Origin: a virus
Virus record (IMG/VR): IMGVR_UViG_3300031418_000024
Direction: 5' to 3' (one strand)
DNA: 45,568 bases
The notes under the pieces were generated by a model. It ran no database searches. It was not told the DNA's origin and saw nothing but the letters and a program-made list of their open reading frames with translations. The translations under genes were made by a program, and so were the position numbers. This document shows, one piece after another, positions 1,078 through 45,568 of this stretch. Numbering within the stretch: the stretch's first letter is position 1; every line of letters starts with the position of its first letter.

Positions 1078-2176
1078 GACCGTTAACCAACGGTTGGCAG
1101 ATGAGGCGGTCAAGCGCCGCCTCTACGTCCACCGATTCGCCAACAAGCTTGCCCAGGATGCCCGCTCCCGCATCCTGAAGGCACGACTGGCCCTTGCCAT
1201 GAATGTCCAGCAGGCTCTGGAGATTGGCCCACCCAGTCCGGCAGCGTTCAACCAGACACACCTGGTGAAGATGATCCGCAGCATGACTGATCAGGTTATG
1301 GATCTGTACGAAGCCGTGACCAGTGATGCGCAGAAGAGCCTGGCGGCATACACGGCCGTTGAGGTAGCGGCGCAAAACAGCATGTTCACCAGCCTAATAC
1401 CGGAAGCCATTCAGCAGTTCTTCCCGGTGACTAAGCTGACCACGTCACAGGTGGTGTCAGCTGCGCTGGAGCGTCCATTCCAGGGTGCTCTGCTGAAGAA
1501 CTGGGCAGAGAAGCAGGCTCAGTCAGCCATGGGGGCCATTGCCAGCCAGATCCAGACCGGTTACACGCTGGGCGAGTCACACGACCAGATCGTGAAGCGC
1601 GTCACCGGGACGAAGGATGACCCTGGCCTGCTCAATCGCCTGGCTAACGATGCGGGAAACGTCGTAAAGACGGCTGTAGGACATTATCAGGCCACGGCGA
1701 CAGAGCTGATGGGTGAGGCCAACAAAGACATCCTGAAGGCTCAGGAGTGGCTCTCAACGCTCGACAGCCACACATCCACCCTGTGCCAGGTGCGCGACAA
1801 GAAGCTATACACGCTGGACAAGAACCCGAAGCCCATCAAACACGCGATCCCATGGGGTGCCGGACCGGGCAAACTTCACTTCTGCTGTCGCTCCACCCGC
1901 ACCTTCGTGACGAAGTCATGGCAGGAGCTGGGGATTGATTCGGGGGAGATGGATGCAGGAACCAGGGCAAGCATGAATGGACAGGTCGCCGCTGACATGT
2001 CATTCACGCAATGGGTCGCTCGTCAGGAACCACATGTCGTTTACGATTTGTACGGCCCACAAAGGGGTCAGTTGATCCTGGATGGCAAGCTGAAACCGGA
2101 TGACATGTTCAACGACAAAGGGGAGTTTTTGACCCTCGATCAGCTGGCTCAAAAGGGAATGATAAAGGCATCATAA
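1070..2176 (+). CDS. Head morphogenesis / minor head protein (SPP1 gp7 - Mu F-like)
   Basis: ATG 1070 preceded by aggaaaa and overlapping the portal stop. C-terminal LHFCCRSTR-type motif and position after portal are typical of the family. Confidence 0.75.
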   Translation: MNKTVNQRLADEAVKRRLYVHRFANKLAQDARSRILKARLALAMNVQQALEIGPPSPAAFNQTHLVKMIRSMTDQVMDLYEAVTSDAQKSLAAYTAVEVAAQNSMFTSLIPEAIQQFFPVTKLTTSQVVSAALERPFQGALLKNWAEKQAQSAMGAIASQIQTGYTLGESHDQIVKRVTGTKDDPGLLNRLANDAGNVVKTAVGHYQATATELMGEANKDILKAQEWLSTLDSHTSTLCQVRDKKLYTLDKNPKPIKHAIPWGAGPGKLHFCCRSTRTFVTKSWQELGIDSGEMDAGTRASMNGQVAADMSFTQWVARQEPHVVYDLYGPQRGQLILDGKLKPDDMFNDKGEFLTLDQLAQKGMIKAS

Positions 2177-2293
2177 AAGTGGATTATCGGGAAATAATCC
2201 ACGATGTTTAAAAACCCAGTCTCCATGCGGCTTAGGGATGGATTATTGGTGTATATATCCCTATAGGGATATACACCAAATAATCCATCCCAG
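2173..2293. repeat. Structured 121-bp element, copy A (24-bp palindrome 2179-2202 plus 57-bp quasi-palindrome 2235-2291); inverted copy at 41535-41655
   Basis: The reverse complement aligns with 41535-41655 at 107/121 positions. Both palindromes are conserved and the linkers have diverged. Confidence 0.9.
2179..2202 (-). terminator. Candidate intrinsic terminator of the HNH transcript (GTGGATTAT-N6-ATAATCCAC hairpin followed by TTTTAT on the minus strand)
   Basis: 9-bp stem, 6-nt loop, U-tract on the minus strand; the stem is AT-rich. Confidence 0.4.
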
Positions 2294-2323
2294 CCAGGAG
2301 CAGCATGAGAGGCAAAATCCACA

Positions 2324-2722
2324 TCACCTGACAGAGGCAAGCGGCGACAAATCCAGCTCAAGATTCATGGGCTGAATTTTCCCCGACAGGATGTCAAATC
2401 CCCTGCGCTCAAGTTCAGCCATCGCCATGGCTTTCACGGATGATTTAACCATCCTCATCCCGGCGATTGCCGCCAGTGAATGCCAGTCGTTGAATGTGTC
2501 AGTTTCAAGCGCCAGCAGTATGTGAGCCTTCACGTGGTCATTACGGTTTAGCCACACCAGATTTGACCTGCTATTCCCCTCCTCGTCTTTACGCTTGCCT
2601 GGGTACATCCAGATGGGCCTGATGTGGTGCTTATCAAACCCAACGCGCTTGACCCATGGCGCATACACTGACGGCCTGCCGTGTTTTATTAACTTCTCCA
2701 GAATGAACTCAGCGTAAGACAT
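2324..2722 (-). CDS. HNH endonuclease (free-standing, homing-endonuclease-like), antisense to the morphogenesis genes
   Basis: Motifs DKHHIRPIWMYP ... NLVWLNRNDHVKAH (HNH core); RBS gaggg before the ATG; visibly AT-richer than neighbours. Confidence 0.8.
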   Translation of the reverse strand: MSYAEFILEKLIKHGRPSVYAPWVKRVGFDKHHIRPIWMYPGKRKDEEGNSRSNLVWLNRNDHVKAHILLALETDTFNDWHSLAAIAGMRMVKSSVKAMAMAELERRGFDILSGKIQPMNLELDLSPLASVR

Positions 2723-3605: not shown

Positions 3606-4736
3606 ATGTCCCGAATTGTGTTTGATGCGCAAATCTCCACCGCTGCAACCAAAGTGCTGGAAGCAAACCTGAACGTGTTCAACACGGCATCCCGCGGCGC
3701 TATCGTTGCCGGTGCTGGTGACTTCCTTGGTGACTACCTTGAGCGCGTCATGTGGGCAGCCCAGCAGATGGTCAGCCGTCGTAACGCATACGGCTCTGGC
3801 AAGGTGTCAGCGACCGAGCTGCAGCAGATCCTTGAACGTGCCGTGAAAGTGGACCAGCGTGTTGGGCCGTTGAAAGTGACCGGCGCAATCATGGACCGCC
3901 TGGGCAAGAACAACCAGGAAGCGGCGGCAGTGATGGGCACCCAAGTAGCTCAGCAGCTGATCCAGGACCAGATTGACGTGGTAGTTGGTACTCTGCTGGC
4001 GGCTACGCCTGCTGAACTGACCTACGACTTCTCGTCCATCGCTACCGGCATTCCGAACCTGAAGCAGATTGCGAAATCCCTGCGTCTGATGGGTGATGCC
4101 TACCAGCGTATCGTGGTCCAGATCATGTCTGGTGCCAGCTACAACGACATGATCGTTGAGGGCAACATGGGGAACATGGAAAAACTGTTCACCATTGACA
4201 ACCTGATGATCATGCAGTCGCCGCTGGGTCAGACGTTCCTGGTGACCGATGCCATGGGCCTCGACACCATCGAAGGCACTGGCGCAGATGCGAAGTCAAA
4301 ACAGCGCGTGCTGTCTCTGCAGGCCGGTGCTGCCGTGGTGCAGACTAACCCGATGGTCATGCGTACTCAGGACATTCTGGGTGAAGAGAACCTCGCTACC
4401 CTGATCCAGGGTGAGACTCACTTCAACCTGGGCCTGAAAGGCTACGCCTATGTCGGCAAGTCGAATGCGCTGGGTCTGGGTGAGAAAGCAACCTCTCCGA
4501 CCCCGGCTACTGAGCAGACCGACAACACCACCGCCATCACCGCCGATCCTGGCACAGCTGGCACCTCTACATCTGCCGGTTCAGCGTCTCCGGTTAACGC
4601 TACCCTGTTCGCTAAAACGAGCTGGAAAGTGGCAGACCCGCGCTGGAAACCAACCGCAGGCAAACCACTGACTGGTGGCACCCTGGACGCTGCGAAAGGT
4701 CTGGCCGGTGTAGTGGCAGTCTTCGGCGACAAATAA
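3606..4736 (+). CDS. Major capsid protein
   Basis: 376 aa, follows the scaffold gene and is followed by a strong terminator; composition typical of siphovirus capsid proteins. The HK97-type fold is assumed from gene context, not shown by sequence. Carries a low-complexity Thr/Ser/Ala/Pro-rich C-terminal segment. Confidence 0.75.
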   Translation: MSRIVFDAQISTAATKVLEANLNVFNTASRGAIVAGAGDFLGDYLERVMWAAQQMVSRRNAYGSGKVSATELQQILERAVKVDQRVGPLKVTGAIMDRLGKNNQEAAAVMGTQVAQQLIQDQIDVVVGTLLAATPAELTYDFSSIATGIPNLKQIAKSLRLMGDAYQRIVVQIMSGASYNDMIVEGNMGNMEKLFTIDNLMIMQSPLGQTFLVTDAMGLDTIEGTGADAKSKQRVLSLQAGAAVVQTNPMVMRTQDILGEENLATLIQGETHFNLGLKGYAYVGKSNALGLGEKATSPTPATEQTDNTTAITADPGTAGTSTSAGSASPVNATLFAKTSWKVADPRWKPTAGKPLTGGTLDAAKGLAGVVAVFGDK

Positions 4737-4754
4737 GCGCTGATCTGAACGAAA

Positions 4755-4782
4755 AGGCTCGCTACGGCGGGCCTTTTTTTTG
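4755..4782 (+). terminator. Rho-independent terminator after the major capsid gene
   Basis: GGCTCGC-tacg-GCGGGCC stem followed by T8. Confidence 0.8.
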
Positions 4783-8213: not shown

Positions 8214-10802
8214 ATGGCTGAAGATGTAGCAAACCTATCGCTAAAGGTTGACACACAGGAGGTACAGGAAGCCAGTAGCGCGCTGGGCTTCTTCAAAGAC
8301 AAGGCCATCGGCGGCGCAAAGGCCGCTACTGAGTTCAGCCAGTCAGCTGGATCGATGTCTGACCGTATCAAAGACACTGTCGCCTCACTGGAGAGGCAGG
8401 AAGCCAGCATGGGCAAGCTGGGCAACACCATCGGCCAGCAGGGCAACCAGTACCGGAACCTTACCATCAGCCAGGGCCAGTACACAAACGCCGTGCGCAT
8501 GCTGCCCGCGCAGATGTCCGATATCGCTACCCAGCTCCAGATGGGCACGTCTCCATTCACTATCCTTGTCCAGCAGGGCGGACAGATTAAAGACTCATTT
8601 GGCGGTGTGCAGAACACCCTGAAAGCCTTTGCCGCCACCCTGTCGCCAGCCATCATCGGCGCAACCGCACTGGGTGTCGCACTGGCCGGTATCGGTTATA
8701 GCGCATACTCAGTCAGCGAGCGATTTGATGCGGTTAACAAGGCCATCATTGAGACGGGCGGCGTAGGATTTAAGAGCGCGGCAGATCTTGAGGCGGCAGC
8801 GCAGCGCATCTCAACTGCAACCGGCGACTCGATCCACTCTGTAACCGACCTGCTCGTCAAAATGCAGGAGTCAGGGAAGTACACGACAGAGACGATTAAC
8901 CAGAGCGCTGAGGCAATTTCAAAGTGGCAAGAGGCTTTCGGCGACTCTGACAAGCTCCAGAAGGGTCTGGAGAAGATGACCACTGACCCGGTCAAGGGTC
9001 TGCAGCAGCTTAACGAAACTTTCCACTTCGTCACCCCAACCGTTATGGCACACGTCGCCGCCCTGCAGAAGGCTGGCAAGGATTCCGAGGCCTGGGGCGT
9101 GGCAATGGATGCTGCGATGGGAATGGTCAACACCAGGACTGAGCAGATGAAGGGCCAGGTGGGTGAGATGGAGGCGGCCTGGAAGACGCTTAAAACCGTT
9201 TCAATTGAGGTTGCTGACGGCCTGGGCAAGGCGCTTATCGGCATGGGCGATCAGGTTGTTGCCGGGTTTAACCTCCTGCTGCAGTCGGTAAAAGGCATCC
9301 TGCTGGATATTGACAGGCTGGCGCGCGAGGCTGTTAACGGCACCATCGACCAGATCCGCAAACTCCCCGGCATGTCTGAAGCATTCAGTGATGCCTACAC
9401 CCAGAACCAGGATCTGATTAAGAAGGGCGACCAGCAGATCATCGCTAACCGCAAAGAGATTCTGCGACTGCAGCAGGTGCTGAATAAAACAGCTGAACAG
9501 CAATACGACGACACACACAAGGGCGTTACCGGCACGGGCGGCACCACGGCGGAAGAGGATCGCCAGACGAAGAAAATTGCCGACCAGATGAATAAGAAGA
9601 CGAAGGCCGCTAAAGCATTCCAGGAGGACGCGGGCCAGAAACTTCTCGATCAGCTGAACATGCAGACTGACCAGCTTAAGCAGCAGGAGTACATCTACAA
9701 AAACCATCTGACCGATGGCAAAGCGATGACTCAGGAGCAGCAGAAGTACGTAGCACTGCTGGCACAGATTAACGTGCTGGAGCAGCGGCAGCAGAGCGGG
9801 CAACGTCTGACCAATGAGCAGAAGCAGGTGCTGGCGGTCAAAGAGCAGGCGCTGGCGATTGCCAAACGCAATGCGGATGAATCAGCCCAGCTGGACATCC
9901 TTAAGAAACAGTCAGAACAGCACCGCCAGATCAATGACGCCATTACGGAGATGATCGAGAAGCGCAAGATCGTTACTGACACCCAGGGCGAGTCAACCCG
10001 TGAGCAGGAGCGCGCACTTGAGCTGGCGCAGGCTGAGAACAAGCTGCGCCGCTCCGGTGCCAGTGAGGGTGACATCAAGCGCTACACGGATGAGGTCACC
10101 AAAGGATTCCAGCAGCAGGACGCGGCCAGAGATGACTGGTTCAATGGCCTGTCAACCGGCTGGAAGGATGCGGCAGAGACAGCGGCGGATGTGAATAAGC
10201 AGATGGCCCAGTTTGGGCAGTCAACCTTTACCGGGCTGACTGATACCCTGACCAACTTCTTCATGACTGGCAAAGATGGCTGGAAGGATTTCGCGAACAA
10301 CGCCATCCAGCAGATCATGCGCATCCTGACTAACTCCGCACTCTCTGACCTGACGAAGGCGTTTTCCAGCATGGGTGGAGCGTCCGGCATCATGGGAAGT
10401 ATCGGGAGCTTTTTCGCCAAAGGCGATGCGCTTTATGGCCCCGGCATTAAGGCGCTGTCGGGTGGCGTCTATGACCAGCCCACCCCGTTCACCTTCGCAG
10501 GGCGCACGGCGTTTGCAAAAGGTGGCGTACTGGGTGAGGCTGGCCCGGAGGCGGTTATGCCACTGACGCGTGGCGCTGATGGCAAGCTGGGCGTTAAGGC
10601 AACCAGTGGCAACGGATTTGGCAGCATCATCGTCAGCACGGATGCGACGGTGACCACACAGGGCGGCGGCGATGGCAATCAGAGTGGCGCGCAGCAGCTG
10701 GGATCGATGCTGTCAAAACAGATCGCAGACCAGACGCAATCAATCCTTCAACGCGCCATTGAACCAGGAGGCTTGATCTACCGCTTCACCAAAGGTGGTT
10801 GA
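8214..10802 (+). CDS. Tape measure protein
   Basis: 862 aa, coiled-coil-rich with hydrophobic segments; canonical position. Confidence 0.9.
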   Translation: MAEDVANLSLKVDTQEVQEASSALGFFKDKAIGGAKAATEFSQSAGSMSDRIKDTVASLERQEASMGKLGNTIGQQGNQYRNLTISQGQYTNAVRMLPAQMSDIATQLQMGTSPFTILVQQGGQIKDSFGGVQNTLKAFAATLSPAIIGATALGVALAGIGYSAYSVSERFDAVNKAIIETGGVGFKSAADLEAAAQRISTATGDSIHSVTDLLVKMQESGKYTTETINQSAEAISKWQEAFGDSDKLQKGLEKMTTDPVKGLQQLNETFHFVTPTVMAHVAALQKAGKDSEAWGVAMDAAMGMVNTRTEQMKGQVGEMEAAWKTLKTVSIEVADGLGKALIGMGDQVVAGFNLLLQSVKGILLDIDRLAREAVNGTIDQIRKLPGMSEAFSDAYTQNQDLIKKGDQQIIANRKEILRLQQVLNKTAEQQYDDTHKGVTGTGGTTAEEDRQTKKIADQMNKKTKAAKAFQEDAGQKLLDQLNMQTDQLKQQEYIYKNHLTDGKAMTQEQQKYVALLAQINVLEQRQQSGQRLTNEQKQVLAVKEQALAIAKRNADESAQLDILKKQSEQHRQINDAITEMIEKRKIVTDTQGESTREQERALELAQAENKLRRSGASEGDIKRYTDEVTKGFQQQDAARDDWFNGLSTGWKDAAETAADVNKQMAQFGQSTFTGLTDTLTNFFMTGKDGWKDFANNAIQQIMRILTNSALSDLTKAFSSMGGASGIMGSIGSFFAKGDALYGPGIKALSGGVYDQPTPFTFAGRTAFAKGGVLGEAGPEAVMPLTRGADGKLGVKATSGNGFGSIIVSTDATVTTQGGGDGNQSGAQQLGSMLSKQIADQTQSILQRAIEPGGLIYRFTKGG

Positions 10803-35864: not shown

Positions 35865-35908
35865 TGTCTGTCCTCATTAGGTGGGCGGCCATTCCGCCCT
35901 TGAGATGA

Positions 35909-35937
35909 ATATTACGACAGCATAATATTATGGGCAA
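35909..35937 (-). promoter_or_regulatory. Early-promoter family member TTGCCC-17-TAATAT (minus strand); a mirror TTGAGA-17-TAATAT lies on the plus strand at 35900-35928
   Basis: About 70 nt homologous to the promoter at 37443-37471, including an upstream A/T block; hexamers read on both strands. Confidence 0.55.
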
Positions 35938-36036
35938 GCTATTTCTTAACTTTCCGTCGAATATTTTTAGGTGGCTTAGGTCGGGGCGGCCCGCAGGCCA
36001 CCGCACGCAGCTCCTTAAGCCAGTCCGGCACCGGGT

Positions 36037-37442: not shown

Positions 37443-37471
37443 ATACTACGCATTCATAATATTATGCGCAA
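37443..37471 (-). promoter_or_regulatory. Early-promoter family member TTGCGC-17-TAGTAT (minus strand) driving the autotransporter-like gene
   Basis: TTGCSCATAATATTATG-N4-CGTARTAT is shared with 35909-35937; a GC hairpin lies in the 5' UTR. Confidence 0.55.
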
Positions 37472-37483
37472 GTAATATTTACA

Positions 37484-37717
37484 TCATCGGTTGAATATTT
37501 TTATCGGGCTGTCCGTTGGCACCGATGGCCGGAACATCCGCAGCTCTGCATCAGTCAGCCAGAGCTGAATCACCGTAGCGCTGACTACCTTCCACGTCTC
37601 GACAGTGCAGCGCCTGCCGTAATATTCGATCAGGTCGCCACTGGTCAGTAAAACTGCTGGAATATCTCTTCCGACTGACATAGGGTTAACCCCGCATTGT
37701 GTAGCCATGGACGGCAC
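37484..37717 (-). CDS. Hypothetical protein (77 aa, GTG start)
   Basis: aaggag 7 nt upstream of GTG 37717. Confidence 0.45.
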   Translation of the reverse strand: MPSMATQCGVNPMSVGRDIPAVLLTSGDLIEYYGRRCTVETWKVVSATVIQLWLTDAELRMFRPSVPTDSPIKIFNR

Positions 37718-38803: not shown

Positions 38804-41515
38804 ATGTCCAGCAACAAAATTCACGAATTTGCATTACCGAACGGCACACCAGCAGCCCCGCTGACCTGGGCGCATGGCCGCAAGGCGTTCAGTAATAAAT
38901 ATCAGAAACTGGTTCCGCAGCCTGAGTACCTTCCGCGCGATCACATGGAAGCCAGGGAACTGGCCCAGCTCGCAAAATGGCTGCCTTCGAACATATCTAT
39001 CCCGGCAGGCACGGACAAAGATCAGCGCGACCAGCTGAAGGCTGCGATCCCGCTCTGGTTCCCTGGCGGACTGAAGAAGAAAGGCGCAGATGGTGGTGAT
39101 AGCTGTCGCCGCCGCGCTGTGAATATGGCCCCCACAAAGCTGGTTGTATTCGACCTGGACGAGTGCAGCCCTGAAGCCTACAACGTCCTGACAATGGCCG
39201 TGCTGAACGGTTACAGCGCCATCAGCTACACCACGCCCAGCGACACACCAGAGGCCCGACGTGTCCGCCTGGTGATCGAGCTGGACCGTCATGTCCTGTC
39301 CGGGAAGGATGGCAAGGGGCTGGCCTCATCCCTGGTGATGCAGGAGCTGATGGAGTCGTGCAACGCCGAACCGGTGGCAGAAGAGCGCGGCGTATGGTTG
39401 CTGGCCGGGAAACGCGTGGCGTTCGACATGTCCGTTCACGACGCGGAGCAGTACCTGATCAGGCCGCACAAAGAATCTGAGGTGAATCTCTACCATGGTG
39501 ACCCTGTCAACCTGGACAGACTCGCCACCACCCAGTGGCAGCCAGAGGTGGCGGCGTGGGGAATCACCGGCAAGAAAGACAGCAGCGAGAAGGATGCCCG
39601 AGAGTACAGCCCGGAAGAGTGGGACAAGCTGGCGTCAGGAGCCAAAGATCTGGTAAGCCTGGCCGGTGAACGCGGCTGGGTGCAGGTCAATGACTCAACC
39701 ATCAACATCATCTGTCCGAACTGCAACGCGCACAGCAACCCGAACGAACCGGCAACCGGTGGCACAGTGATCAAGCTCCCGTCCGGCAGCAACCCGGAAC
39801 CGCGCTTCGTGTGCTCGCACAGTCACTGTCGCGATCTGAGCCGGAACCAGGCGCTGGCTTTCATCCTGATGCGCGCCCCCGGCGAGTGCGTGCCGGAGAT
39901 CAACAAAGTCCTGAGTGCTGACGAGATCCAGTCTATCGCCACCGGCATCACGCGGGAGCAGGCTGAGTACGCCAGCAACGGGATGGACTACCTGCGCGAA
40001 TGGCAGCGCCAGGGCGGCGTCAATGGTGAACTGACCATCCGCCAGATTAAGGACCGCAGGAAGTCGCTGGAGATGGACGACGACTACCTGAAATCGTTGC
40101 TCTCAGATGCGGCTGAATTCACCTATGACGGTCCGTCATTCGATGAGTATGGCGACGAGATCGAGCCAGAGATGACACCGGATGAAATGGAGCAAAAGCC
40201 GGATGATTATCACGATGAGCCAGAGGGTGAAGATGATACACCGCGTTTAACGGGCCTCAGCGCCATCGTGGCGGCCTCAAAGGCTAACGTTGAGCCTCCG
40301 GCATGGGTTATTGACCAGCTCGTCCCTACGCGCTCTGTAGGCTTTATTTACGGGGCATCCGGAACGAAGAAAACATTTGTCGCTCTGCACGCTGCTCTCT
40401 GCGTTGCTCAGGGCGTCCATTTCCTGGGCCTGGGTGTTCGTCCGGGTCACGTGTTTTACTTCAGCCCGGAAGACTTCGACGGCGTTGCAGAGCGTTATGC
40501 CGGATGGCGCGAGAAGTACAACAGCGGCAAGGTGCTCGAATCGTTCCACCTGACCCACCACCGCCTGCCCCTGGAGGACCACGACAAGATGCGCACACTG
40601 GCAGCAGGCTGGGTGCACAGCAACCCTGATGACCAGATAGGCCTGATCATCGTTGACACCCTGTCCAGTAACAACGCAGGCGCTAAGTCCGAGATGAACG
40701 AGAACGACAACAACCAGATGGCAAAGGTCATGGCAGGCGGCGAACTCCTGGCCCGTGCACTCAACTGCGCAGTGGTCATCCTGCACCACACCGGCAAGCC
40801 GAACCCGAACGATAAGTTCGAAAAGACCAGCATTCCCGATCCACGGGGAGCTTCAGCGCTGAAGAACAACGCCGGGTTCGCAATCTACATGAAGGCCGTC
40901 GCCCGCAGTCATGACGTCTCGCTTCACGTGAAGAAAGCGAAGGGTGTAGCAGCATTGCCGCCGCGCAGGCTTAAAACCGAATCAGTCCGCTTACCCGAGC
41001 GTATCGTTGAGGCCAAACGCAAAGCGGTGCAGGATCTGGTGCCGGTCCCGGAATCTGTCTCATCGAACCCGAACGCCTGGCAGCGCAGCGACAGCGCATT
41101 TACCCTGGCAATCATCAACGAGGTCTACCCGATGGAGACCGCCACCGCAGCAGAGCCAGAGGAAAGCCCCACCATGCAGCTGGCGAAATTCATCACCGGC
41201 CTGCTCTCCACCCACGGCAAGGATGGCCGGATGCTGAAGTCCGAGCTGCGCAACATGGCGAAGGAAACACGGCCGGAGGTATTCACCGACAAGAGCACCA
41301 AAGACAACGGCGGCAAGCGTGACCGGTCCGGCACCAACAACTTCAACAACGCCTATTCGACGGCATTGCGTGAGGCGCTGATTTCGGAAGGAGCTGGTGA
41401 CCTGGTCATCATCGGCGCAGCAGCCGCAAGACTGAAACCAATACGGGAAGAAAAGCCCCTGCCAACGGACTGGCATTTCACCGACGAGAACCAGGGTGAC
41501 GAGGAGGATTTTTAA
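38804..41515 (+). CDS. DNA primase/helicase (N-terminal primase-polymerase-like region, zinc-binding segment, C-terminal RecA-fold RepA/DnaB-like ATPase)
   Basis: CPNC...CSHSHC zinc motif; Walker A GASGTKKT; DTLSS and HHTGK helicase-type motifs; 903 aa. Confidence 0.8.
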   Translation: MSSNKIHEFALPNGTPAAPLTWAHGRKAFSNKYQKLVPQPEYLPRDHMEARELAQLAKWLPSNISIPAGTDKDQRDQLKAAIPLWFPGGLKKKGADGGDSCRRRAVNMAPTKLVVFDLDECSPEAYNVLTMAVLNGYSAISYTTPSDTPEARRVRLVIELDRHVLSGKDGKGLASSLVMQELMESCNAEPVAEERGVWLLAGKRVAFDMSVHDAEQYLIRPHKESEVNLYHGDPVNLDRLATTQWQPEVAAWGITGKKDSSEKDAREYSPEEWDKLASGAKDLVSLAGERGWVQVNDSTINIICPNCNAHSNPNEPATGGTVIKLPSGSNPEPRFVCSHSHCRDLSRNQALAFILMRAPGECVPEINKVLSADEIQSIATGITREQAEYASNGMDYLREWQRQGGVNGELTIRQIKDRRKSLEMDDDYLKSLLSDAAEFTYDGPSFDEYGDEIEPEMTPDEMEQKPDDYHDEPEGEDDTPRLTGLSAIVAASKANVEPPAWVIDQLVPTRSVGFIYGASGTKKTFVALHAALCVAQGVHFLGLGVRPGHVFYFSPEDFDGVAERYAGWREKYNSGKVLESFHLTHHRLPLEDHDKMRTLAAGWVHSNPDDQIGLIIVDTLSSNNAGAKSEMNENDNNQMAKVMAGGELLARALNCAVVILHHTGKPNPNDKFEKTSIPDPRGASALKNNAGFAIYMKAVARSHDVSLHVKKAKGVAALPPRRLKTESVRLPERIVEAKRKAVQDLVPVPESVSSNPNAWQRSDSAFTLAIINEVYPMETATAAEPEESPTMQLAKFITGLLSTHGKDGRMLKSELRNMAKETRPEVFTDKSTKDNGGKRDRSGTNNFNNAYSTALREALISEGAGDLVIIGAAAARLKPIREEKPLPTDWHFTDENQGDEEDF

Positions 41516-41534
41516 CTCTCAATCAGACCACTTA

Positions 41535-41655
41535 CTGGGATGGATTATTTGTTGTATATCCCTATAGGGATATATACAACAATAATCCATCCCTAAGTAC
41601 TGTGGTTACTGGGTTTTTACAACTTGTGGATTATTTCCCGATAATCCATTTTTAT
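41535..41655. repeat. Structured 121-bp element, copy B (57-bp quasi-palindrome 41537-41593 plus 24-bp palindrome 41626-41649), inverted relative to 2173-2293
   Basis: 107/121 identity with the reverse complement of copy A; the T41552:A41579 stem pair replaces G:C of copy A. Confidence 0.9.
41626..41655 (+). terminator. Candidate intrinsic terminator of the primase operon (GTGGATTAT-N6-ATAATCCAT followed by TTTTTAT)
   Basis: Hairpin plus U-tract on the plus strand, downstream of the stop at 41515. Confidence 0.45.
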
Positions 41656-41658
41656 AAC

Positions 41659-41688
41659 TTGCGCATCATGACCTTTCGGGGCCATAAT
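41659..41688 (+). promoter_or_regulatory. Sigma70-like promoter TTGCGC-18-CATAAT upstream of the packaging-module genes
   Basis: Hexamers read directly; CGTCGAA follows the -10 immediately. Confidence 0.4.
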
Positions 41689-41716
41689 CGTCGAACAATT
41701 ACAGCAGGAGTTAACC

Positions 41717-41911
41717 ATGGAAATACTCGTTTTAGTCATTAGCGATAACGGCACGAAAAACATCACCGAACTCGAAGTCGGGAAGGATGTCACCATCCAG
41801 GAGGACCACCTGGGCGTCGATATCAGCTGGGCAGATCGCAGTGAGCACTTCACCGGCAAGATGGTGCAGGTCTACACGCGGCACGCAACGATTGTCGTCT
41901 GGCGCAGATGA
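41717..41911 (+). CDS. Hypothetical protein (64 aa)
   Basis: Strong RBS aggag. Confidence 0.5.
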   Translation: MEILVLVISDNGTKNITELEVGKDVTIQEDHLGVDISWADRSEHFTGKMVQVYTRHATIVVWRR

Positions 41912-42675: not shown

Positions 42676-42911
42676 TTATCGCCGCATACGCCTTCCTGTA
42701 CCTGCTAATCGGCTTCCTGGTGGCGTGCTTGGTTATGAGAGGAGAAGATGAGGATAAATCTGTATGGTTTATAGTGATCTGGTTGCTTTGGCCCTTGCAT
42801 ATTGCTGCCAGCGCCCTTGCTTTCACAATCAGAAAAATTAACCAATTCGCCGCCTTCGTCCTTCGCAACCTTAACCAATTCGCCGCCTTCATCCTTCGCA
42901 AATTGCGTTAA
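42672..42911 (+). CDS. Small membrane protein with a tandemly repeated C-terminus
   Basis: Two transmembrane segments; INQFAAFVLRN / LNQFAAFILRK encoded by a 33-bp tandem repeat. Confidence 0.5.
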   Translation: MIIAAYAFLYLLIGFLVACLVMRGEDEDKSVWFIVIWLLWPLHIAASALAFTIRKINQFAAFVLRNLNQFAAFILRKLR

Positions 42912-43569: not shown

Positions 43570-44959
43570 GGTCATGGAAATCCGCAAACAGATGCCGTTA
43601 CTTCCCCACCAGATGGAGCTGATGATGGACACCACCACCCAGATCCTGGGCATGTGCTCAGGGTTCGGTGGTGGTAAGTCATTCTCCGCCGCCCGTAAGG
43701 CTGTCCAGCTGCTGCTGCTCAACCCTGGCTGTGATGGCATCGTGACGGAGCCAACCTACCCGCTGCTGACCCAGATCATGGTTCCAGAGCTTAAGACGGC
43801 TCTGGAGGCGTTCGAGGTGCCTTACCGCTACAACAAGGTGGAGAATATCTTCTACTGCGTCGTGGAGGACCAGCCTACCCGTATCATCTGCGCGTCAATG
43901 GAGAACTACTCGCGCCTGATTGGTATCAACGCCGCCTGGATCGTATCCGACGAGTTCGACACCACGAAGCATGAGGTCGCTATTGAGGCGTTCCGCAAGC
44001 TGATCGGGCGTATCCGTCGCGGCAAGGTGCGCCAGTTCGTCATCGTGTCAACGCCGGAAGGCTACCGGGCCATGTACCAGATCTTTGTGCTGGAGAACAA
44101 CCCGCGCGATCCGAAGTACAAGGCAGGCCAGAAGCGCCTCATCAAGGCCCGCACCTATGACAACCACCATCTCCCGGCTGACTACATCGAACGAATGGAG
44201 TCACTCTATCCTGGTGCGCACATCAAAGCCTACCTGAACGGCGAGTTCACCAACCTCACCCAGGGTTCCATTTATCATGAGTTCAGCCGCGAGCTGAATA
44301 AGTGCGACACAGTGGTGCGCCCAGGCGAAGACCTGCACATCGGCCAGGACTTCAACGTCGGTAAACAGGCGTCGTGTGTGTGCGTGAAGCGTATTGTGAT
44401 GATGCCGGTTGCGGGCACGGCGTACTGGGACGAGCTAAGCAATTCAGTGCAGTGCGAGATGGAACCGGTGGAGCAGCTGCACGTAGTTGATGAGTTCTTT
44501 GGTCAGCTGGACACGAAGGCGACGATCAAGGCCATTCAGGATAAGTATCAGCCAGAGGGCAGCCAGGCGGGGGATGATAATTACCACACCATCCACATCT
44601 ACCCCGATGCATCAGGCCGCAACCGCAAGACGAACAACGCCAGCACCTCAGACATCGCTATGCTGGAGGAGGCTGGATTCTACGTCCATGCGGGTGCATC
44701 AAACCCGGCTGTGCAGGACCGCATCTTGTCCATGAATAGCCTGATCAACAATGCGCGCAATCTCCGCCGCCTACTTGTTAACCCTACCTGCGAGACTGTC
44801 ACCAACTGTCTGGAGCGCCAGGTATACAACGAGAAGACCGGAGAGCCTGAAAAGGGCAAGCACGACCACATGAATGACGCTCTGGGCTACGTGGTTAATA
44901 CCCTGTATCCTGTGCTCAAACCGATGCATGATGACGTTGATTTTGACATTTACGGATAA
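43562..44959 (+). CDS. terL: Terminase large subunit
   Basis: Walker A SGFGGGKS, Walker B VSDEFD, C-terminal nuclease-like DxxD/HDHMNDA motifs; ATG 43562 overlaps the terS stop. Confidence 0.9.
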   Translation: MSEVMEIRKQMPLLPHQMELMMDTTTQILGMCSGFGGGKSFSAARKAVQLLLLNPGCDGIVTEPTYPLLTQIMVPELKTALEAFEVPYRYNKVENIFYCVVEDQPTRIICASMENYSRLIGINAAWIVSDEFDTTKHEVAIEAFRKLIGRIRRGKVRQFVIVSTPEGYRAMYQIFVLENNPRDPKYKAGQKRLIKARTYDNHHLPADYIERMESLYPGAHIKAYLNGEFTNLTQGSIYHEFSRELNKCDTVVRPGEDLHIGQDFNVGKQASCVCVKRIVMMPVAGTAYWDELSNSVQCEMEPVEQLHVVDEFFGQLDTKATIKAIQDKYQPEGSQAGDDNYHTIHIYPDASGRNRKTNNASTSDIAMLEEAGFYVHAGASNPAVQDRILSMNSLINNARNLRRLLVNPTCETVTNCLERQVYNEKTGEPEKGKHDHMNDALGYVVNTLYPVLKPMHDDVDFDIYG

Positions 44960-44970
44960 GGGGCAGACCA

Positions 44971-45568
44971 GTGAACGAACGTTTGAACGTTGATACCCGC
45001 CATCCGTCCTATGACACCTATGCGCCCGAATGGGCGCTTATTCGTGACTGTGTGGACGGAGAGCGCGCGATTAAAGCCAGGGGTGAGCTTTACCTCCCAT
45101 TCCCTGGCGTGAACCCGAAAGACACACACAAGGCCGCTAAGCGCTATAAGAACTACAAGCACCGCGCCGCCTTCCTGAATGCCACCGGCCGCACGCTTGA
45201 CGCGCTGCTGGGTGTCGCGTTCGCGAAGCCGATTGCCGTTGCCGTCTCTGGCGCGCTCAGTCTGCTGGAGAACGACACGGACGGATCAGGGCAGTCACTG
45301 GCCCAGCTCTGCCGTAACTCGCTCACTCAGGTGCTGACGCGCGGGCGTATGGGCTATTGGGTGGACTACGAGACGCCAATGATGGAGGAGGACGGAACCC
45401 AGACAGCAGAGCAGGCGGCGGCCAACCGTGCGCGCGTGCGCCTGATCGAGGCTCCGGAAATCATCAACTGGCGCGTAGTGGACGGCGTCACGACCCTGGT
45501 CGTGTTCAAGATCCACGATCAGCTGGCCGGTTCAGTGGATGACTTCGGCGATCTGCCGGTGACGAAGT
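44971..45568 (+). CDS. Portal protein, N-terminal part (GTG start; runs off the window end and continues at base 1)
   Basis: aagggg RBS before GTG 44971; no stop in frame 1 to the window end; in phase with 1-1077. Confidence 0.8.
   Translation, partial: MNERLNVDTRHPSYDTYAPEWALIRDCVDGERAIKARGELYLPFPGVNPKDTHKAAKRYKNYKHRAAFLNATGRTLDALLGVAFAKPIAVAVSGALSLLENDTDGSGQSLAQLCRNSLTQVLTRGRMGYWVDYETPMMEEDGTQTAEQAAANRARVRLIEAPEIINWRVVDGVTTLVVFKIHDQLAGSVDDFGDLPVTK
45442..45568. repeat. Second copy of the window-terminal duplication (identical to 1-127)
   Basis: Exact identity on direct comparison. Confidence 0.95.

Follow-up and report, generated by a model that had tools for sequence, protein, structure and literature searches.

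What does a phage gain from a long palindrome and a short one, built on a shared half-site and present in two mirror-image copies? The question is raised by a 121-nucleotide (nt) element in IMG/VR virus record IMGVR_UViG_3300031418_000024, a stretch of 45,568 nt (hereafter the window) that amounts to a complete phage genome. Copy A (2173..2293, minus strand) fills the gap between the stop codons of a head-morphogenesis gene (2176) and of an HNH gene on the minus strand (2324), and copy B (41535..41655, plus strand) follows the gene for a primase/helicase of 903 amino acids (38804..41515, plus strand). The genome is ~96% identical to that of Pantoea phage vB_PagS_MED16 (record MK095605), which makes the phage a MED16-like, unclassified siphovirus and not the T1-like phage of an initial sequence-only reading.

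Sequence comparison establishes the anatomy of the element, its duplication, a pairing conserved by compensatory change, motifs private to each lineage, linkage to the helicase gene and independence from the HNH gene. We infer that the element acts in DNA, that its binder is the primase/helicase and that the process served is the initiation of replication. The role we put forward is an origin-type stem-loop with initiator half-sites, to which we give a probability of roughly 0.45, a little under even odds. The link to the primase/helicase, the independence from HNH and the derivation of copy A from copy B are all absent from the sequence-only reading.

Anatomy of the element and its two copies

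Read in the sense direction, both copies present the same order of parts: an upstream gene (the primase/helicase on the plus strand for copy B, HNH on the minus strand for copy A), a big hairpin, a spacer, a small hairpin and a T-run. The big quasi-palindrome of copy B (41537..41593, plus strand) has arms of GGGATGGATTATT, a stem that is AT-rich in its inner part and an apex of CCCTATAGGG; once flanking pairs are counted, its stem extends over 41524-41611 and reaches 37 base pairs (bp) at -45.5 kcal/mol. A spacer motif common to both copies, ACTGGGTTTTTA, lies at 41608..41619 (plus strand), followed by the small palindrome GTGGATTAT-TTCCCG-ATAATCCAT at 41626..41649 (plus strand) and by TTTTTAT. 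In copy A, the 57-nt quasi-palindrome occupies 2235-2291 (minus strand; ~2226-2302 with flanks, 29-30 bp, -42.7 kcal/mol), and the 24-nt small palindrome GTGGATTAT-cgggaa-ATAATCCAC occupies 2179-2202 and is followed on the minus strand by TTTTAT. The stem core is 26 bp with one 1-nt and one 2-nt bulge, or 30-37 bp with flanking pairs included. The copy A coordinates of both palindromes, with the 32-nt spacer between them, had been given correctly by the sequence-only reading, as had the bulged stem, the two neighboring stop codons and the inverted second copy at 41535-41655, which we confirm at 121 nt and 88% complementarity.

The two copies are 88% identical over 121 nt in inverted orientation and form the longest inverted pair in the window. 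The half-site TGGATTAT occurs eight times in the genome, always inside copies A and B, where 0.93 occurrences would be expected in 45.6 kilobases (kb) and none of 100 shuffles reaches eight. The pattern of the 24-nt palindrome, with up to three mismatches allowed, is found at two places only in the window (0.00 expected). Folding of the RNA on both strands, a check proposed with the original observation, gives z-scores of -7.6 to -8.5 for all four strands of the two copies, and none of 200 shuffles is as stable. No other simple hairpin in the genome is as long or as stable as the big stem, which, as had been argued, far exceeds what a terminator requires. The element is AT-rich, with a guanine-plus-cytosine (GC) content of 34-39% against 55% for the genome. 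In both copies, the small palindrome has an 8-N6-8 geometry and sits between -35-like and -10-like hexamers, which in copy B are TTTACA (41616) and GATAAT (41645).

A comparison of copy A with copy B separates what is maintained from what drifts. The palindromes are 97-100% identical and the spacer, apart from ACTGGGTTTTTA, is ~66% identical. The only two substitutions in the 57-nt palindrome are pairing partners of one another (G-C versus U-A), two further pairs at the stem base are kept with different bases, and the single change in the small stem turns G-C into G.U. Because the substitutions fall on pairing partners, it is the pairing within each copy that is under selection, and not the complementarity of A to B. 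Long-range pairing of the copies, as in an rRNA-type stalk or an mRNA panhandle, was rejected on the same grounds, since within-copy compensation keeps the local hairpins and breaks A:B complementarity. The compensated difference is present in all three close strains and, together with the drift of the spacer, means that gene conversion of the whole unit cannot be the full explanation for the likeness of the copies. In MED16 itself (L003, ~4727 and ~44803), both copies carry the same extra T, reading GGGATTGG where the window and the near-identical assembly L257 have GGGATGG; the change may be recent and concerted, or it may come from the assembly of a repeated palindrome.

Relatives with the element were recovered through protein searches. 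In the Logan assemblies L257-L261, which are near-identical phages, the elements are unchanged. A contig of intermediate distance, L256, is more informative: its large terminase subunit (TerL) is 73% identical to that of the window, its primase/helicase 55% and its small terminase subunit (TerS) 44%, and the small open reading frames (ORFs) by its copy B are unrelated to those of the window. Both positions are occupied in L256 as well, by an inverted pair (70 nt, 83% complementary; copy A equivalent at 10385-10516) that aligns end to end with the window element and conserves the landmarks GGGTTT and CGATAAT, with GGGTTT, the core of ACTGGGTTTTTA, at the same distance (28 nt) from CGATAAT. The half-site in L256 is a different one, TAATTA, and all nine of its occurrences in 17.6 kb lie inside the elements. 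Across lineages, 10 of 25 pairs of the big stem have changed on both sides and 93% of the cells remain paired; none of 500 shuffles reaches the observed values, and slid partners give two to four such pairs. Conservation of the dyad symmetry in related phages, the test that the sequence-only reading set for itself, is therefore what we find, with pairing intact down to 55-73% protein identity.

Two constraints thus coexist in this element. Pairing is kept where sequence varies, in the inner stem and at the stem base, and a private motif is fixed in every half-site of both palindromes in both copies. Their coexistence suggests a dedicated phage factor that reads sequence within a hairpin, cruciform or dyad, as opposed to host enzymes that recognize structure only. 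Profiles of protein identity between the window and L256 reveal no clear specificity domain for a protein that co-varies with the motif.

The pair is specific to the MED16/L256 clade. We found no bracketing pair in relatives at ~50-56% TerL identity (L191-L200, L263 and L264), MED16 is the sole record in the phage collection with the 121-nt element, and pattern scans of the phage, IMG/VR, JGI metagenome and GTDB collections otherwise returned chance hits and no true copies. Matches in the metagenomes were dominated by Arctic marine loci (L202-L253) with an unrelated tandem satellite of ~11-nt CCATGGATWATCC units that contain TGGATTAT/ATAATCCA words. Rfam 15 has no match at its gathering thresholds, and a permissive scan retrieves nothing but generic models of microRNA-precursor hairpins, which score 17-23 bits where the gathering scores are 40-142.

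Hairpins that follow the primase/helicase gene

The stem of copy B begins 9 nt past the stop codon of the primase/helicase gene (41515), and this adjacency recurs well beyond the MED16/L256 clade. In the window, L256, Smarc2, Susuwatari, Lumpael, sortsyn and IME279, a long quasi-palindrome starts no farther than ~100 nt from the stop codon of the primase/helicase gene, and its apex is composed of a C-run, a TATA-like stretch and a G-run. The Serratia phages Smarc2 and Susuwatari have the same genome layout as the window and carry a post-helicase quasi-palindrome of ~70 nt, whose differences between the two phages are compensated. It is adjoined by three to four direct CAGGGATG repeats and by a strong promoter-like site; Smarc2 has three CAGGGAT within 40 bp, and the genome-wide count of this word is at chance level. 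Neither Serratia phage has a copy at position A.

Farther away, Lumpael and sortsyn (Murrayvirus) and IME279 (Sortsnevirus) have helicase domains ~35% identical to that of the window and, at or just past the helicase stop, a quasi-palindrome of 34-36 bp. Its apex is of the same form as in the window, CCCCCCCTTATAGGGGGGG in Lumpael and ATATACCCCCTAAAGGGGGTATAT in IME279, and GTTAC/GTAAC or GTTAAC motifs are present in its arms and again close by, in either orientation. GGTAAC is found 10 times in the IME279 locus, where 0.98 would be expected. Three GGTAAC also stand just upstream of the helicase gene of IME279 (L269, a Klebsiella phage; 1034-1073), so that the gene is flanked by the motif on both sides. 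Lumpael is a podovirus with a P22-like virion module, it has no second copy of the hairpin, and between the hairpin and the packaging genes lie 5.5 kb of small ORFs, which indicates that the hairpin tracks the replication gene and not the packaging block.

A covariance model built solely from the MED16-type and L256 hairpins was run with filters off on 98.6 kb. All nine of its hits fall on post-helicase hairpins, in five phages, and none falls elsewhere in that sequence, the whole Smarc2 genome included; the helicase-sense strand scores higher in four of the five phages. With default filters, the model gives no hits.

From these comparisons, the long hairpin of copy B appears to belong to a previously undescribed set of hairpins that follow primase/helicase genes in several phage groups. 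With a counterpart in L256 and matching post-helicase hairpins elsewhere, copy B occupies the ancestral position, and copy A is a later inverted duplicate specific to the MED16/L256 clade.

The protein encoded next to copy B is the candidate partner in trans. Its N-terminus matches phage primase families only, and a RepA/DnaB-like AAA_25 domain spans residues 488-667, for which the only match of solved structure is a weak one, RepA (1g8y).

Replication, transcript ends or regulation

We propose that a long DNA stem-loop goes with this family of phage primase/helicase genes, always just 3' of the gene, and that copy B is its form in this phage. A phage protein, for which the primase/helicase encoded next to the element is the most plausible candidate, would bind the lineage-specific half-sites (TGGATTAT in the window) that are found in the small palindrome and in the outer arms of the big one. 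The inner palindrome, AT-rich and easy to extrude, would supply the hairpin or cruciform as well as a stretch of unwound DNA for the helicase to assemble and for priming to begin. On the opposite strand, 6 kb away, copy A would serve as an equivalent platform, a second or auxiliary initiation site. Of the three roles that the sequence-only reading had offered, the cruciform and the site for a dimeric protein fit the comparative evidence best, and RNase III-type processing or retroregulation explains less.

This origin-type reading is the best supported because the adjacency to the primase/helicase is constant, because relatives carry iteron-like repeats and because there is a precedent in plasmid pRN1. 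The clustered private motif typical of iterons is seen as eight TGGATTAT in the window, nine TAATTA in L256 and the GGTAAC of IME279, and some of the repeats beside the relatives' hairpins are direct and cannot form RNA stems. In pRN1, a stem-loop of ~100 nt that lies just 3' of the primase-helicase gene is required in cis for replication and also suffices for it; its stem must be intact, as compensatory rescue demonstrated, its structure is conserved and its sequence is not, and its authors noted that similar stem-loops are predicted 3' of phage replication genes, for example in BIP-1 (PMC4234260). The element likewise is a stem-loop of ~60-100 nt directly downstream of a primase-helicase gene, with structure kept and sequence not, although here the importance of the stem is read from natural covariation. 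It also differs in adding a small palindrome that shares the half-site of the big one and, in one clade, an inverted duplication. The archaeal plasmid protein combines a prim-pol with a superfamily 3 (SF3) helicase and with a winged helix, whereas the phage protein is RepA/DnaB-like with AAA_25; since the architectures differ, the comparison concerns how the element may work and not membership in a family.

Other origins resemble the element in design. At oriV of plasmid RSF1010, the hairpins ssiA and ssiB lie on opposite strands and are used by the plasmid primase after unwinding by RepA. Inverted hairpins of this kind would explain how the inverted orientation of copies A and B could be functional, and the helicase domain here weakly matches RepA; in contrast, ssiA and ssiB are close together, by iterons bound by RepC, whereas the phage copies are 6 kb apart and share no sequence similarity with them. 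In the oriS and oriL of herpes simplex virus (HSV) and the core origin of simian virus 40 (SV40), inverted sites flank an AT-rich center, unwound forms are prone to hairpins, a genome may hold multiple origin copies, and oriS lies in inverted repeats. These eukaryotic viruses with their unrelated proteins offer an analogy of design only.

The RSF1010 parallel can be pushed further, into what we regard as a long shot. The inverted copies may constitute a bipartite, strand-specific initiation system with one single-strand initiation (ssi) hairpin per strand, each read by the RepA-like primase-helicase through the private motif, so that leading strands would start in opposite directions 6 kb apart and bracket the packaging genes; the phage would then hold an RSF1010-like ssiA/ssiB with its halves pulled apart, and the long stem-loops 3' of this primase-helicase family would be unrecognized origins in Murrayvirus, Sortsnevirus, Smarc2-like and MED16-like phages.

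Several observations weigh against an origin. Copy B stands at the end of an operon, where an RNA hairpin is expected, and its small hairpin is followed by a U-run; copy A borders the 3' end of the head-morphogenesis gene, where transcripts would naturally end, and close to the same boundary the relative L264 carries a canonical terminator. In all four copies, G.U pairs make the small hairpins slightly more stable on the sense strand, a hint of RNA. It is not obvious why a phage should have a second origin 6 kb from the first, and the homologous Serratia hairpins are GC-rich (65-69%) and hence not unwinding elements. The family of hairpins has caveats of its own: the E-values of the covariance model are marginal (0.02-9, on a rough calibration), a model of a 30-bp hairpin may find any hairpin of similar size, the Lumpael hairpin is unexceptional in its own genome under a lax definition, and L263 and L264 have repeats after the helicase gene and no comparable hairpin. 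As to the partner, we detected no DNA-binding domain in the primase/helicase: the C-terminal 134 amino acids have no match in the PDB, and a single-sequence AlphaFold model with a mean predicted local distance difference test (pLDDT) score of 43 is unusable.

The most serious rival, although we consider it unlikely, is an element of RNA 3' ends, in which the long hairpin is an RNase III-type site or a 3' stabilizer and the small hairpin with its U-run is an intrinsic terminator. Copy B would then part the primase/helicase transcript from the packaging operon, and copy A would close the packaging block and, in this phage, also stop minus-strand transcription of the HNH gene. The shared polarity of the copies (gene, big hairpin, small hairpin, U-run) speaks for this reading. 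So does the bias of the small hairpins toward the sense strand, seen also in the G-C to G.U change between A and B, and promoter-like sites follow copy B in three lineages. A terminator scan accepts copy A's small hairpin on the minus strand but not its counterpart in copy B. In its predicted pairing, the stem also has the geometry of an RNase III substrate, at least ~20 bp of double-stranded RNA with internal loops; it exceeds 20 bp and its bulges are conserved, in the manner of the T7 sites, and the motif shared by the two palindromes might be explained by an alternative 2:3 pairing, as in an attenuator.

Against this, a host enzyme that reads structure would not fix one lineage-specific sequence in the two palindromes of either copy when the spacer has drifted to 66% identity, and an RNA role leaves unexplained the repeated motifs beside the homologous hairpins, among them direct repeats, which are features of a DNA type. 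The big hairpin has no U-run and is equally stable on both strands. The small hairpins of L256 are weak, at -5 to -6 kcal/mol; its copy A lacks a U-run, and upstream of it there is no minus-strand gene or promoter-like site. Ordinary GC-rich terminators are used elsewhere in the phage, and the hairpin keeps its place behind the helicase gene in Lumpael too, with its packaging operon 5.5 kb off. At position B, the roles of origin and of transcript end are compatible with each other.

The RNA systems that come closest differ in similar ways. The RNase III hairpins of T7 and the sib site of lambda are long, imperfect intergenic hairpins with internal loops at the 3' ends of genes, which occur in several similar copies and are not intrinsic terminators; the T7 sites are co-oriented and spread over many gene boundaries, and a model based on them requires neither a motif shared within a lineage nor adjacency to one gene family. 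The nutL and nutR sites of lambda and putL and putR of HK022 come as two opposite copies per genome with hairpin sequences specific to the phage lineage. They are much smaller and lie just past early promoters, whereas copy B follows a 2.7-kb gene and copy A of L256 has no promoter upstream. T4-like phages have PeSL cassettes, repeated intergenic modules of stem-loop plus promoter-like sequence with lineage-specific stems; these have short stems in many co-oriented copies that flank and shuffle variable genes, in contrast to the two inverted copies with 30-bp stems at fixed positions described here (PMC4122927, PMC2839356).

Less probable still is a pair of operators, whereby a dimeric regulator would bind the TGGATTAT inverted repeats at copy B, overlapping a packaging promoter, and at copy A, perhaps looping the 6-kb block between them, as lambda does with OL and OR, to time the packaging genes. 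The 8-N6-8 palindrome between promoter-like hexamers in both copies is classic operator geometry, the motif is private to each lineage and confined to the elements, mirror-image copies bracket a gene block, and the small ORFs next to copy B are wholly different in the window and L256 lineages. The -35-like hexamer, however, is not conserved in L256, the promoter-like site of copy A would fire antisense into the head-morphogenesis gene, and no DNA-binding fold was detected in the neighboring ORFs. Operators would also leave unexplained both the perfect pairing of the inner 24-nt stem through compensatory changes and the single-copy hairpins after helicase genes in distant phages.

A selfish or neutral palindrome, namely repeats kept by gene conversion, remnants of an HNH cassette or terminal inverted repeats of the packaging module, is very improbable: the extra T common to both MED16 copies hints at recent conversion, the HNH gene beside copy A is a hotspot of divergence and the repeats bracket a discrete block, but L256 has both copies with no HNH gene or remnant, conversion would have homogenized the spacer, the compensated difference persists in all three close strains, MED16 has no annotated recombinase, transposase or protelomerase, no copy turned up in other genomes, plasmid-like contexts or metagenomes, the orientation of the block is constant in all genomes seen, and the element has outlasted divergence to 55-73% protein identity with its pairing intact.

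A number of narrower candidates were rejected. A mobile element or a host repeat of the repetitive extragenic palindromic (REP) type was set aside when scans of IMG/VR, the JGI metagenomes and GTDB gave chance hits and the marine satellite. The pac site assigned by the depositors of Smarc2, a relative, lies at nt 1, 1.26 kb downstream of the homologous hairpin, an indirect argument against a role as pac site. No protelomerase or invertase for which the element might be a target is annotated in MED16. As a target for 7-deazaguanine insertion by DpdA, the element has too few sites to hold the ~33 dADG per genome of MED16. DnaA boxes were dropped as well: ATAATCCAC matches at 7 of 9 positions by eye, but the L256 motif is unrelated.

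The surroundings of the element and its significance

The neighborhood of copy A is informative about the HNH gene. L256 contains neither an HNH gene nor a remnant of one and keeps both copies, which removes every explanation tied to HNH, including a homing cassette or a mere terminator of the HNH gene. In a comparison of 12.4 kb with L257, 83 of the 141 mismatches fall at 2378-2711, and the HNH proteins are 82% identical; the flanks of this hotspot, element A included, have zero mismatches. The divergent region (2378-2775 in the window) spans the HNH gene and its promoter-like region, with a promoter-like site TTGACG-17-TATTAT at 2783-2755 on the minus strand, and its pattern resembles what allele replacement or rapid evolution would leave in a free-standing homing endonuclease. 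The corresponding place in L256 (10510-10890) consists of ~380 bp with no called gene and with two copies of GATTTGAGGGGG, each followed by ATG, which may mark small ORFs; GATTTGAGGGGG resembles GGGTTTGAAGGGGG in the spacer of L256 copy B.

Reading frames over the copies are probably artifacts. A 70-codon ORF crosses copy A (2149..2361, minus strand), and the sequence-only reading was right to treat it as non-coding; its counterpart in MED16 is annotated as gp05. Another ORF runs across copy B (41602-41742, plus strand). Neither has a counterpart in L256, and the substitutions in the element compensate within stems and are not codon-like, which argues that the hypothetical proteins annotated over the copies in MK095605 (gp05, 4588-4764; gp69, 44758-44859; gp70, 44865-45011) are probably palindrome artifacts.

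The first 127 nt of the window are identical to positions 45442-45568, which most likely reflects overlapping ends in the assembly of a circular or circularly permuted genome; the MED16 paper reports that no defined termini were found and makes no mention of palindromes, promoters or inverted repeats. On the circular map, copies A and B are only ~6 kb apart and enclose three small ORFs and the genes for TerS, TerL, portal and head morphogenesis, a block that has the same orientation in all genomes seen. GC skew tracks gene orientation only and is uninformative. Between copy B and terS, a membrane-protein-like ORF of 79 codons contains two tandem 31-nt units of TTAACCAATTCGCCGCCTTCGTCCTTCGCAA (42838-42901; 97% identical, spacing 33 nt). 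In the leftward early region, at 35891-35976 and 37443-37510, lies another repeated element that looks non-coding, with a 68-nt direct repeat that is 71% identical and an overlapping 42-nt inverted repeat around CATAATATTATG.

Stem-loop origins beside primase-helicase genes are already known as a kind. What is new here is the family of post-helicase hairpins in enterobacterial phages, a half-site shared by two palindromes and an inverted duplication specific to one clade. Replication origins are unknown for most lytic enterobacterial siphoviruses and podoviruses. If the origin-type reading is true, the origins of at least four phage groups would be marked by a long hairpin with private half-sites just past the primase-helicase gene, and the motifs TGGATTAT, TAATTA, GTTAC and CAGGGAT would be natural specificity variants for swaps. 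For annotation, the result is that three genes of MED16 are probably no genes at all. For the MED16/L256 clade, the inverted duplication amounts to a natural test of what a second copy does.

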